Assembly: GCA_023701005.1 (NCBI GenBank)
Contig: JAMPXW010000001.1
Span: forward strand, 143,843 to 207,842
Source of the DNA: Burkholderiales bacterium
Lineage (GTDB): Bacteria; Patescibacteriota; Minisyncoccia; Phycocordibacterales; UBA9973
Length of the DNA stretch: 64,000 nucleotides
Reading direction: 5' to 3'
Positions 7,187 to 10,381 of the stretch are shown piece after piece. Position 1 is the stretch's first letter. Each line of letters begins with the position of its first letter. Below the pieces are notes generated by a model. The model was not told the origin of the DNA, made no database searches, and saw nothing but the letters and a program-made list of their open reading frames with translations. Made by a program: the position numbers and the translations under genes.

Positions 7187-10100
7187 TTAATGATGTTCTT
7201 TTTTTGAATTATCAGCGACAAATACTACTTCGCGATTATAGTTAGAATATGCTTTTCTTGCTGCGAGTACAAGCAATACTACAAGAAGTATTAATAAGAG
7301 CCATCCTATTAGGTTGTTAGGCAAGAAGCCATTTCCAAATAAGAATGCAAGTGCTCCTAATTGTATCGGCTCAGTTGTGTTTATCGGTTGTTCTACGACT
7401 ACTGGCTGACTCCAAACTTGTGCAGATACATTTGCACTTACTGACTGGGTGTAGCCTGAAGGATCAGTATAAGACAAAATAGCAGGGAAGTTTAGATTTG
7501 TTCCTGCAGGAATGTTTTCTCTTACACGTACTCGTACTGTCACTGTGCCTTCTTTGTTTGCACCAAGTGTTCCCAGGTTGAAGATTAGAGTACTCCCAGA
7601 CCTAGTTGGATTGTTTGGATTTGAGAATATATAATCTACTTCATAAGGAAGATCCATTCGTAGGTTTAATTTTGTGATTGAACCTGTTCCAATGTTTTGG
7701 TAATTTACAGTATAGTTTATTTCGTCTCCTGGTTTTGGTCTTGTGTTGTCTATAGTAGGCACTATTGGTTGATTGCGATCGACAGAAGAAGTGATAAGGA
7801 CAAGGGAAGTAGGTGCTGGTTTTGGATTATTTATTGTTTGTCCACGAACTCCTATAGTGACTGTATCGCTTGCATAACCATAACTATTACTACAAGTTAT
7901 TTTATATGTTTTCCCTGATGTTAATGAACCAGTATAGAAACTAGCTGGTCCAATACTTTTTGTTCCTGACCAACCCGTTGATCCGCCACTAGCTACACAA
8001 GATGTGGCATTTTGAGATGTCCAACGTAGATAAGTAGCACCATTATAAGAGAGACTTTCTTCGTCAGCATTAAGACTAACGTAAGGATCATTTCCACTTG
8101 GTTGATTCTGATTTCCTACATAAACTGTAACTGATTTTGTGTCAGCATTACCGTTGTTATTTGAACAAGTAATATTGTATGTAGTTGTATTTGTGAGAGC
8201 CCCGGTATGAAAACTATTTGAATAAGTACTTTTTGTTCCTGCCCAACCATTAGAGCCAGAATTTGCATAACAAGATGTGGCATTTGTTGGATACCAACGG
8301 ATGTTTGTACTTCCGCCGTATGCGACACTGGTAGAATCAGCAGTTAATGTGACATTTGGTTGATAGATATTGTTATAGTTTTGATTGTTTATATTTATCA
8401 CCACGGATTCAGTTGTAGAACCAGCACTATTACCACAAGTCATCGTGTATACAGTAGTGTAATAGAGTGCTCCAGTAGAGAAGCTACCATTGTATGTGCT
8501 TCTTGACCCTGCCCAATTATTTCCACCATTGCTTGCTGTACAATATGTAGGATTGTTTGTTGGATTCCATGTTAAGTAAGCTCCACTTCCTGAAGTAATG
8601 TAAGTAGAATTAGCGGAAAGATTTATTATAGGAGCTTGTGTGTAATTATTACAATTATTGTAATAAGAACAATCATGATTATTGTTGGTTACATAAACTG
8701 TTACCGAGCTCACAGCTGGGGAAGTATTGTTTGCACCAGAACAGGTGATCGTGTAAGTTGTCGGAGTAGTTAACATCCCAGTATTCCAAGTTCCTGAAAG
8801 ATTTACACTTCCATACCAATAGTTAGAATTATTACTTGTTGCTACACAAGATGTCGCGTTGTTTGAGTTCCAACGTAAGGTTGTGCTGTTTCCATAATTT
8901 ACATTCGTATTATCAGCAGAGATACTAACGGTAGGATTTTGGCTATAACATTGTGGATTTGTATATGTTTGAGTTGAAGGCCCAGAACAATATGCGCCAC
9001 CGTTTGCAGGTGTAGGGTTTGTACAAGTTCTTGTTTGTGTTCCAGATGTACCACAAGCATAATCTCTAGTACTCCAATCACTCCATCCACCATTTATAGG
9101 TTGATTTATTACAGTGTTCGCACATTTTGTCCCGTCCCATTGAGTGTTTGATGCACAACTAGAAGTTATTATTTTTGTATCTAGCAATTCACCATTATTA
9201 TAAAGATAAAAATTTCTTGAACTAAAAGGTATAAATACAGACTGACTTCCGTAATTTCTATTTGCAATAGTTGAACCGTCGTACGGATAAGAAGAAGTTA
9301 CAGAAGAGATACCTTTTGGATTTGTTGTGTTCCAAGTTATTGTTGTATTACAGCCATTTCCATTTAAGGGGATTGTACAGTAAGAAGAACCAGTCAAAGT
9401 TCCTGACATTTGAGAAGGGATGGCTGTCACATAGACTATTGCAGAAGCTGAAGTTGATTTTCCTCCACCATAACAAGTTATATTGTAAGTTGTATTAGAA
9501 GTTGGATTTACTGTTTGATTTCCATTTGTTGTTCCTCCGCCATACATCCAACTTGCTGAACATGAATCAGCGTTTGAGCTATTCCAAGCAAGATTTACAG
9601 ATTGCCCAGCAGTAATCGTTGTGTTGCTTTTTCCGTCTACTGTTAGAGATACGGTAGGATTATTTACGACACAAGCAGGGTTTGTGTATGATTGTGTAGA
9701 AGGTCCAGAACAATATGCGCCACCGTTTGCAGGTGTAGGGTTTGTACAAGTTCTTGTTTGTGTTCCAGATGTACCACAAGCATAATCTCTAGTACTCCAA
9801 TCACTCCATCCACCATTTACGGGAACTAAACAAGCACTATTTGTGTATGTTTGAGTTTCTGTACTTGGCCCAGAACAATATGCACCACCATATGCAGGCG
9901 TAGGATTATTACAAGAACGAGTTCTTGTTTGAACACCAGAGTATCCACATTGAGTACTTTTTGGGCTCCAGTCGCTCCAAGCACTCCAACCGCCGTTTAC
10001 TGGTTGATTTACTACAGTACATGTGGAAGTTGTGAAATTAAGAATATTTAAATATGCTGTTCCGTAATTATTGGTAACTTCGAGTCTAAAATAATAAGTA

Positions 10101-10381
10101 GTATTTTCAGAAAGACCTGAAATGTATTGTTGAATAGGAAATGTACCTTCAGTATTAAAATACTGTACTGGGGTTATTGTCCCGGCACCATTTGCTACTG
10201 TACTATAGCTAGTACTATAAGTAAAACGTGCATGAGTTGGAGGGGTTCCTGTGGTTACTGTCCCTGTCAAAGTAGCACTATTACAACTTGTTACAGTTTG
10301 AGCAGAAACGACATTTCCATTAGCAAAAATCCCTAAAAGGGTTACTGTTCCGACTATTAATAATTTTATTTTTGTACTCAT
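7187..10381 (-). CDS. Large cell-surface protein: signal peptide, FN3-like domain, three thrombospondin type-1 repeats, ~6 Ig/PKD-like ~90-aa repeats, DUF11-like domain, C-terminal TM anchor
   Basis: 1064 aa. Signal peptide [27 protein letters not shown]. TSP1 units [35 protein letters not shown]. Repeated T.SC.A...W.G....G.L...T.Y.ITC modules. C-terminal [19 protein letters not shown]. A perfect ~120-bp intragenic DNA repeat (about 8988-9105 and 9705-9825) encodes two identical TSP1 units. Confidence 0.75.
   Translation of the reverse strand: [1064 protein letters not shown]

Follow-up and report, generated by a model that had tools for sequence, protein, structure and literature searches.

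A candidate adhesin-like surface fibril with minimal thrombospondin type-1 repeats at a variable locus of Patescibacteria

Introduction

Which task can thrombospondin type-1 repeats (TSRs), adhesive modules of animals and apicomplexans (PMC2173040; PMC3417536), fulfil in a bacterial protein, and how did they come to be there? The question is raised by a gene in a 64,000-nucleotide stretch of contig JAMPXW010000001.1 (here called the window), which was deposited as DNA of a Burkholderiales bacterium. An original prediction made from the nucleotide sequence had described the open reading frame (ORF) at 7187-10381 as a large surface protein. A single ORF on the minus strand was indeed found there, encoding 1064 residues with a signal peptide and a C-terminal transmembrane (TM) anchor. 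As judged from the analyses below, its product is probably a Sec-exported, type-I membrane-anchored, hypervariable and adhesin-like surface fibril of Patescibacteria, which evolves by module swapping and gene conversion. Host recognition by Patescibacteria is largely unknown outside the Saccharibacteria. With this locus, a concrete candidate becomes available for comparison between genomes: the fibril encoded in one conserved chromosomal slot has an outward half that appears to be rebuilt from a few modules in each relative.

Results

Architecture of the surface protein

Modules were delimited with hidden Markov models (HMMs), for which segments of the protein itself served as seeds and which were extended in one round with its relatives. 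They follow each other in the order signal peptide-N-T-T-R-M-T-R-R-R-R-DUF11-TM, where T denotes a TSR; the DUF11 domain is called D and the TM-containing C-terminal module C (Table 1). Family HMMs detected N, T, R, M, D or C modules in no other ORF of the window. Thr, Asn and Ser make up 39% of the protein, which contains 30 Cys, and all its extracellular-type modules have even Cys counts.

The TSRs, as predicted, were recognized by Pfam: TSP_1 (PF00090) matched the whole protein with an E-value of 3.8e-11 and 43.5 bits (cutoff 21.6) in three stretches. The DUF11-like domain was likewise identified (PF01345, 34.6 bits in the whole protein, cutoff 24.6); TIGR01451 reached 21.9 bits in the same region, which is under its cutoff of 24, and a phmmer search of this region against PDB sequences returned 0 matches. 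The C-terminal anchor consists of a hydrophobic helix of 18 residues followed by RK. A family motif, F[LF]Pxx[LI]xGW, runs straight into this helix, and no LPXTG motif is present in the protein, no lipobox Cys in its signal peptide and no sortase TLxTC motif in the window ORFs.

The N module had been described as FN3-like. Here, Pfam gave a sub-threshold match to Pur_ac_phosph_N (E 0.005-0.006); when the N modules of 15 family members were scanned, 11 matched the same Pfam family (best E-value 1.4e-5). Six Ig/PKD-like repeats of ~90 residues had been expected downstream of the TSRs. Their immunoglobulin-like (Ig-like) character was borne out, and they proved to be five R modules and one divergent M module of 106 residues, interleaved with the TSRs. 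A structure model of R1 and M had a predicted local distance difference test score (pLDDT) of 93.2, and a Foldseek search with it yielded tandem Ig-like matches at ~10% identity; Pfam and NCBIfam assigned no family to R or M modules. R2 to R5 scored 84-112 bits with the family HMM, and the R1 model suggests an Ig-like fold for them as well. The R-M pair recurs in 16 other family segments, and a Cys-pair linker, HDCSYYNNC, follows R2.

A conserved frame with an exchangeable middle

The surface-protein gene is a positional ortholog across a clade of Paceibacterota and Nomurabacteria. Among the 120 best database matches 56 were proteins of the Candidate Phyla Radiation (CPR), and all 56 share the N...D-C frame. 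In between, T, R, M and additional N modules are strung together in varied ways, and one to five TSRs are present in about half of the proteins. Within the frame, mean column identity was 87% for the D module (12 family members) as compared to 54% for the N module. With many invariant positions, D is by far the best-conserved module of these shuffled proteins, which suggests that it contacts an invariant partner in the envelope.

Variation in repeat number had been proposed and was found: the number of TSRs at the orthologous slot is zero in L081, one each in L001, L002, L005 and L007, two each in L004 and L008, three in the window and five in L003. Members of the N...DUF11-TM family are also encoded at L004 and L008, where the flanking genes have another arrangement. 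The positional orthologs (MFA5095500.1 in L001 and the proteins of L002-L005, L007, L008 and L081) have the locus, the frame, the anchor end and the 4-Cys TSR type in common with the window protein, which differs from them in its unique module order and number, in having the sole long 4-Cys unit and in containing the longest exact repeat. Among the orthologs compared, the order N-T-T-R-M-T-R-R-R-R was found in the window genome only.

The closest relative, P0002 on the syntenic Logan contig L081, lacks any TSR. It shares the signal peptide, is 92% identical to the window protein over residues 477-1064, and its R1-M segment shows identities of ~80% (protein) and 73.5% (DNA). L081 has no DNA counterpart of N-T1-T2 or of T3; the T3 slot is occupied by exactly one R module, a clean module-for-module replacement at the linkers. 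Apparently, the locus is a module-shuffling hotspot, the module content being unlike in each relative examined.

Source organism

NCBI lists the identical protein as MCM2338971.1, [quoted passage not shown], on a 277-kb contig. According to their NCBI organism names, all named bacterial relatives come from metagenome-assembled genomes (MAGs) of Paceibacterota, Nomurabacteria, Pacebacteria or Minisyncoccia. Ten flanking genes, including a 166-aa ORF, HlyD, ABC, MacB, DUF5666, pseudouridine synthase, Csp, S20 and RuvA, are 47-97% (most of them 70-97%) identical and in the same order in Paceibacterota/Nomurabacteria MAGs (L001-L003, L005, L007 and L015), the syntenic loci originating from several independent submissions. 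Because of this synteny, a GC content of ~32% and named relatives that all belong to the CPR, the label "Burkholderiales" is almost certainly wrong, and the DNA stems from a Paceibacteria/Nomurabacteria-like member of the Patescibacteria, in line with the CPR-like organism of the original prediction. Thus, the deposited record is mislabelled, and it is annotated as hypothetical only; the L001 ortholog MFA5095500.1 has already been named "thrombospondin type-1 domain-containing protein" by NCBI. Eukaryotic contamination of the contig was also considered and rejected in view of the syntenic bacterial housekeeping flanks.

Sequence and predicted fold of the TSR units

T2 and T3, each with two Trp, one ladder Arg, four Cys and the tail (S/T)YTNP(A/Q)C, fell marginally below the PF00090 cutoff when scanned alone (Table 1), because both represent a shorter form (WSxWS, single Arg). 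Against family-built TSR HMMs, which are partly self-trained, T2 reached 94-113 bits. As compared to this short form, T1 contains the insertions WSA, RS and TE, one per strand, which restore the canonical WSxWSxW and RxRxC spacing. T1 is the sole long unit among 42 TSR units of the family, 40 of which have four Cys. Of the motifs required for the expected stacking of three Trp on Arg (W-x-x-W-x-x-W on strand A, alternating Arg on strand B), T1 has the complete set (WSAWSDWS, RTRSC), and T2 and T3 have one layer fewer (WSDWS, QTRTC).

An AlphaFold2 model of residues 124-243 (T1-T2), calculated with a 45-sequence alignment, had a mean pLDDT of 92.4. The TSR fold is known as a long, thin, antiparallel three-stranded structure of about 15x20x55 A (PMC2173040). 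When the model was compared to the PDB with Foldseek, the top 50 matches were all TSRs. They include the TSRs of thrombospondin-1 (7yyk, 3r6b and 1lsl; E 3e-9 to 1e-8, 40-44% identity, 116-118 columns), of UNC5 (root-mean-square deviation, rmsd, 1.3-1.7 A over 54-55 residues, ~50% identity, 51% at rmsd 1.3 A) and of properdin, ADAMTS13, C6-C9, semaphorin-5A and BAI1. The model points to a true TSR fold in a prokaryotic, minimal version. Strands B and C comprise 7 residues in T1 and 5 in T2, consistent with an extra layer in T1 and in agreement with insertions on all three strands. The expected fold was recovered in the model, and the three disulfides expected with it were not, as the units contain four Cys each; canonical TSRs have six Cys, whose three disulfides cap the layered core in a group 1 or group 2 pattern (PMC2173040).

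Cysteine columns were assigned by alignment with 36 tandem pairs of six-Cys TSRs, mostly of animal origin. The canonical C1 (at the CSxTCG position) and C5 are absent, the C5 column showing a conserved Tyr, and C2, C3, C4 and C6 are retained. The C2-C6 bond corresponds to Cys433-Cys471 in the structure of Tan et al. 2002, in whose top layer the end of strand B is paired with the beginning of strand C (PMC2173040); we number the latter pair C3-C4. The window TSRs would thus retain at most two disulfides, C2-C6 and C3-C4. Since the C-terminal TSRs of C6-C9 also lack one disulfide (PMC2173040), the 4-Cys units were regarded as TSR variants and not excluded from the TSRs.

Furthermore, composition indicated a net charge of 0 to +1 per unit, with ~2 Lys plus Arg (K+R) as compared to ~4.5 in animal-type units. 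The POFUT2 O-fucosylation motif CxxS/TCxxG is absent from the window TSRs because C1 is missing. The enzymes of C-mannosylation (of WxxW) and O-fucosylation are eukaryotic enzymes of the endoplasmic reticulum.

With classical TSRs (TSP-1, properdin, UNC5, ADAMTS and apicomplexan TRAP/CSP) the window units share the HMM match, the elongated three-stranded predicted fold, WSxW on strand A, Arg on strand B, the C-T-N-P-x-P-x-x-G-G turn and the tandem layout in an extracellular, cell-anchored protein. They differ in having four instead of six Cys, a Tyr at C5, near-neutral charge and no O-fucosylation motif; T2 and T3 are one layer shorter, and the carrier is a bacterial DUF11-anchored fibril. A minimal 4-Cys, two-Trp TSR type together with a one-layer-longer sibling in the same protein is new, and this long/short pairing is useful for learning what the TSR fold needs without eukaryotic glycosylation.

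TSR-fold proteins were also present in BFVD, namely in prasinoviruses (viruses of Ostreococcus and Micromonas), in giant viruses and in one "uncultured Caudovirales phage". The phage protein, A0A6J5N7M8, is annotated as TSP1 repeat and is 34% identical to the model.

An exact repeat shared by T2 and T3

A perfect repeat of ~120 bp had been reported at ~8988-9105 and ~9705-9825. It is real, and nucleotide comparison set its exact span to 115 bp (8982-9096 and 9705-9819). The identity is embedded in a 142-nt stretch at 96%, and the two copies are offset by 723 nt, i.e., 241 codons. When the codons of the gene were shuffled 200 times, exact repeats of at most 16 nt arose. R1 and M separate T2 from T3, and the flanks of the two copies differ. 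The 5' flank of T3 matches T1 at 19 of 29 positions and T2 at 10 of 29, and the core is identical to T2 at 115 of 115. Because of this composite pattern, T3 looks like a gene-conversion mosaic between pre-existing paralogous units, which fits better than a fresh insertion. Of the recent duplication suggested before, the recent homogenization of two TSR units is supported, and it is better read as a conversion patch.

Similar traces were found in other multi-TSR proteins. The nearest neighbor was located in the same protein for 15 of 31 units as compared to ~5% expected by our own estimate, and TSR identity was 0.72 within and 0.64 between proteins. TSR units are linked by exact matches in frame, which measure 58 nt in L008, 38 nt in L003 (there also across an R-M pair) and 37 nt in L004; among nine orthologous genes compared, the window gene contains the longest exact intragenic repeat. 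Metagenome contigs were searched with the 59-nt repeat core for strain variants with other copy numbers, and 0 matches were obtained.

The 115-nt identity would represent the newest conversion tract. Since the copies lie 241 codons apart, recombination between them could delete or duplicate an in-frame cassette of one TSR, R1 and M. The in-frame repeat is likely to promote true changes in length as well as mis-assembly of short reads. New at this locus are, in addition to the TSR type, the module-shuffling hotspot and the clean exchange between a TSR and an Ig-like module, both as read from the sequences, the view of the 115-nt identity as a conversion tract, and the mislabelled taxonomy.

Table 1. 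Features of the surface-protein gene in the window (sequence positions of the window; residues of the encoded protein).
Feature	Residues	Coordinates	Strand	Remarks
Surface-protein ORF, whole gene		7187..10381	(-)	1064 aa; only window ORF built from these modules
Sec-type signal peptide	1-27	10301..10381	(-)	K-rich n-region, hydrophobic core, VSA|Q; sequence reading; kept in ortholog P0002
N module	28-126	10004..10300	(-)	Putative distal tip domain, weakly FN3-like, 2 Cys
TSR unit 1 (T1)	129-186	9824..9997	(-)	Long form, WSAWSDWS + RTRSC, 4 Cys; PF00090 40.1 bits alone
TSR unit 2 (T2)	189-240	9662..9817	(-)	Short form, WSDWS + QTRTC, 4 Cys; PF00090 21.5 bits alone
R1 module	241-322	9416..9661	(-)	Ig-like beta-sandwich, 2 Cys
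M module	323-428	9098..9415	(-)	Second, larger Ig-like beta-sandwich (106 aa), 4 Cys
TSR unit 3 (T3)	430-483	8933..9094	(-)	Short form, WSDWS + QTRTC, 4 Cys; PF00090 20.7 bits alone
R2-R5 modules	484-572, 583-668, 674-760, 766-852	7826..8932	(-)	Ig-like stalk, 2 Cys each
DUF11/CLIPPER (D) domain	859-985	7427..7807	(-)	Membrane-proximal; PF01345 39.6 bits
C module	986-1064	7187..7426	(-)	Motif LGA..FGxGF[LF]Pxx[LI]xGW, TM helix, basic cytoplasmic tail
TM helix	1024-1041	7259-7312	(-)	18 hydrophobic residues, then RK and 23-residue tail; sequence reading
Exact 115-nt repeat, T2 copy		9705..9819	(-)	Nucleotide comparison
Exact 115-nt repeat, T3 copy		8982..9096	(-)	Nucleotide comparison

Discussion

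Model of an adhesin-like fibril

The window protein has the architecture of a fibrillar adhesin, consisting of a signal peptide, a stalk of tandem domains and a surface anchor. [quoted passage not shown] CLIPPER adhesins resemble the window protein in having a signal peptide, one or several tip domains, a tandem Ig-like rod, CLIPPER and a C-terminal anchor (PMC12617251). The window protein differs in its single basal CLIPPER domain instead of a stalk of CLIPPER repeats, in the isopeptide Lys, which is probably absent as judged from a marginal alignment, and in its anchor, a TM helix with a family-specific motif in front of it instead of an LPXTG, OmpA or archaeosortase signal.

In the mechanism proposed here, the C-terminal TM helix and the conserved CLIPPER/DUF11 domain would fix the fibril at the envelope, and a rod of disulfide-bonded Ig-like modules (five R and one M) with three TSRs would hold the N domain and the TSR pair away from the cell. 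Fully extended, the fibril might reach ~40-50 nm, as we estimate from module sizes with ~4 nm per Ig-like domain; a TSR is ~5.5 nm long (PMC2173040). The locus would evolve by whole-module swapping and by gene conversion among paralogous modules, and for this reason the outward part would differ among close relatives with the anchor end being kept. A conserved base and a shuffled tip are as expected of a surface molecule under diversifying selection, for which, given the lifestyle of the organism, recognition of a host or partner appears to be the most economical reading. We infer surface exposure and a variable, adhesin-like role in the recognition of ligands or hosts. The protein had been called a prime host-attachment candidate. 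A role of the fibril in attachment is plausible from its architecture, from which it is still deduced, and the near-neutral TSRs do not add to it.

Several findings weigh against this model. TSR and Ig-like modules share one slot among the orthologs, so that the TSRs could be spacers. A basic groove for glycosaminoglycan binding is not evident from the sequences of the window TSRs, and no ligand can be named; in TSP-1, a positively charged groove of the front face is the proposed recognition face for glycosaminoglycans and CD36 (PMC2173040). The D-family profile matched the CLIPPER structure 9IFR with an E-value of 0.47, and in this marginal alignment the Lys of "VVK" falls on the invariant Pro of "IVP", so that the isopeptide bond may be absent from the DUF11 domain. 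NCBIfam sorting-signal models gave no match to the protein, whose anchoring is thus not based on a recognized sorting signal. A scan of the upstream region for promoters and terminators yielded counts equal to the shuffled expectation, promoter-like sites being not above chance. Additionally, the 3' side of the T3 mosaic is ambiguous, and the protein was seen in a single contig of one short-read MAG only.

Because the units are near-neutral and one slot can be filled by a TSR or by an Ig-like module, we doubt a simple transfer of eukaryotic TSR function. The window TSRs may be spacers, or binders of neutral glycans or proteins, and not binders of the heparin type. Heparin-type binding had been considered as a candidate function, and the charge of the units (K+R ~2) gives it no support.

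A structural coat as the main rival

An unlikely alternative, and the main rival of the adhesin-like fibril, is a structural envelope or S-layer-type coat for protection, with the conserved DUF11-TM base lying within the envelope and the diversity of the Ig/TSR array resulting from pressure by phages or predators instead of host binding. The best Foldseek match of the R+M model was the HPI S-layer protein of Deinococcus (8cka, E 6e-6), a fragment of the Bacillus Sap S-layer protein being also listed; these Ig-like matches are, however, generic at ~10% identity, and Pfam and NCBIfam detected no SLH or other S-layer anchoring domain in the surface protein. A conserved base with a variable exterior suits coat proteins as well as adhesins, and the near-neutral TSRs and their interchange with R modules in one slot would be compatible with a coat. 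In contrast, a single-pass anchor, a long rod of small modules and a distinct tip represent the architecture of fibrillar adhesins (PMC12617251).

Origin of the TSR units

In a further alternative, the TSRs would have been recently acquired by horizontal transfer from an animal or protist, which would imply a eukaryotic host and eukaryote-type ligand binding. We regard this as very unlikely. The window units are 57-60% identical to animal TSRs, many animal proteins are among the top database matches, and T1 has the canonical WSxWSxW/RxRxC length and scores slightly higher with animal units (190) than with prokaryotic 6-Cys units (182). T2 and T3, however, scored 254-259 with the 4-Cys units of the family, 180-183 with prokaryotic 6-Cys units and 167-171 with animal units, although more animal units, pre-selected for similarity, had been compared. 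Across at least 80 prokaryotic loci of many phyla the short WSxWS/QTRTC form prevails, the modules reside in bacterial architectures on contigs of up to 1.78 Mb, the GC content of the gene (0.34-0.38) is near that of the window, and the motif for POFUT2 is missing.

The prokaryotic loci were identified by scanning one genome per prokaryotic species (185,579 species) with the single restrictive pattern C[TN]NP[STA]P[AMS][NG]GG, which gave 143 stretches, 133 of them confirmed by tblastn. TSRs had been called rare in bacteria. By frequency they are; in Patescibacteria and other prokaryotes they are nevertheless recurrent, i.e., rare per genome but found again and again. The best 80 loci belong mostly to Patescibacteria (Paceibacterota and Nomura-, Morani-, Yanofsky-, Staskawicz-, Buchanan- and Shapirobacteria); other labels are Bdellovibrionota, Bacteriovoracaceae (on the 1.78-Mb contig), Oligoflexia, Omnitrophota, Rickettsiales, Planctomycetales, Gammaproteobacteria and one Pacearchaeota, all of which have to be treated with caution as MAG labels and binnings of short contigs. 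The N...D-C frame is confined to the loci closest to the window, the others having unrelated architectures. Among the 136 TSR units in the best 80 loci, 69 are short 6-Cys units (WSxWSxCSxxCGGGTQTRTC...) and 31 are 4-Cys units, almost all of the latter in the surface-protein family; long forms with three aromatic residues and RxR are few.

The prokaryotic short 6-Cys TSRs (L009-L080), of which one to seven occur in large secreted proteins, share with the window units the layer count (WSxWS...QTRTC), the CTNPxPANGG core and ~63% identity. They differ in keeping CSxxCG and the C5 Cys and in lacking the N...DUF11-TM frame. Thus, the name "eukaryote-type" is not supported for the units: as far as their sequences tell, they belong to a prokaryotic short-TSR lineage that has further lost one disulfide, the C1-C5 pair.

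6-Cys short TSRs were also noted at L019, L024, L036, L042, L052, L059, L062, L073, L075 and L079. These ten loci are labelled Bdellovibrionota, Bacteriovoracaceae, Oligoflexia, Pseudobacteriovorax, Omnitrophota and one Pacearchaeota (DPANN), which are predatory or episymbiotic lineages. Additionally, the metagenome protein P0068 (1392 aa) contains 17 TSR units, with at least two tandem short two-Trp, one-Arg units having six Cys (WSGWGACSVACGGGIQTRTC); ranked among otherwise animal-dominated matches, it may be prokaryotic.

Reliability of the repeat

Errors in assembling or polishing a short-read MAG, such as a de Bruijn path joined incorrectly or a consensus that homogenized reads of two strains, are a hardly probable cause of the 115-nt identity or of the T-R-M-T order: the protein occurs in one contig only, 115 nt is near common k-mer and read lengths and the 59-nt core was found in no other public contig scanned, but the reading frame and all module boundaries are intact, the order from R1-M to R2 agrees with the independently assembled ortholog L081, the identity fades gradually at one end (142 nt at 96%), and independent assemblies show exact matches of 37-58 nt that link TSR units in frame (in L003 also non-adjacent ones) as well as within-protein similarity of TSRs.

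A possible wider role of prokaryotic TSRs

Type-1 TSRs have a sizeable prokaryotic distribution, a discussion of which was not found in the searched literature: no papers on type-1 TSRs in CPR or other prokaryotes were retrieved, the matches concerning type-3 repeats in giant genes of Omnitrophota and TSP1 as an animal domain passed to apicomplexans. A bolder hypothesis, to which we assign a slim chance, regards TSRs as a widespread prokaryotic surface module instead of a eukaryotic invention, enriched in lineages living on or preying upon other cells (Patescibacteria, Bdellovibrionota, Omnitrophota and a DPANN-labelled MAG). The Paceibacteria locus would then be a cassette-shuffling determinant of host range, in which module swaps and in-frame gene conversion or recombination among near-identical TSRs, as in the 115-nt tract, make new tip combinations. 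If this were true, the locus would vary in the manner of antigens or tail fibres, no natural TSR would be smaller than the 4-Cys, two-Trp unit, and eukaryotes could have obtained the domain from the bacterial lineage.

Neighboring genes

A functional tie of the surface protein to the adjoining MacB/ABC/HlyD genes was considered and is unsupported, since all flanks are conserved simply from genome closeness and these genes lie on the other side of the surface-protein gene in L004 and L008. The flanking 166-aa ORF product matched no Pfam or NCBIfam family. Ahead of the ATG at 10381 no Shine-Dalgarno-like sequence is visible, and an Rfam scan returned tRNAs only.

With its listed TTG start, the downstream pseudouridine synthase ORF (6514-7221) shares 35 nt (7187-7221) with the 3' end of the surface-protein gene. 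Because tblastn alignments of this ORF to the MAG orthologs, except L081, cover just 185-194 of 235 residues, its start is probably located further downstream than the listed TTG.

In the intergenic region at ~10445-10519, two successive hairpins were found on the minus strand, with the stems CAGAGAAGTG/CGCTTCTCTG and, perfect over 10 bp, CTCTTCAAAG/CTTTGAAGAG; both might act as terminators for the upstream gene. This gene (10525-11283, minus strand) encodes 252 aa with a signal peptide, a collagen-like stretch (PGPPGKDGYTPIKGIDYNDGAKGEKGEDG), a C-terminal TM helix and a Pro/Thr-rich tail, and its product has no Pfam or NCBIfam match. In L001, L003 and L081 the same slot is occupied by small membrane proteins of similar size that are largely unrelated, with Gly-X-Y runs in L001 and L003. 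Apparently, it is a second variable surface gene beside the surface-protein gene.

More distant in the window, the region 21827-23990 contains a PilM-type type IV pilus assembly gene (21827-22924, plus strand) followed by two small ORFs. Further on, two tRNA genes and a 294-aa ORF precede ORFs of 558 and 569 aa without Pfam match (25456-28896, plus strand), which may be more surface or pilus-related genes of this organism.

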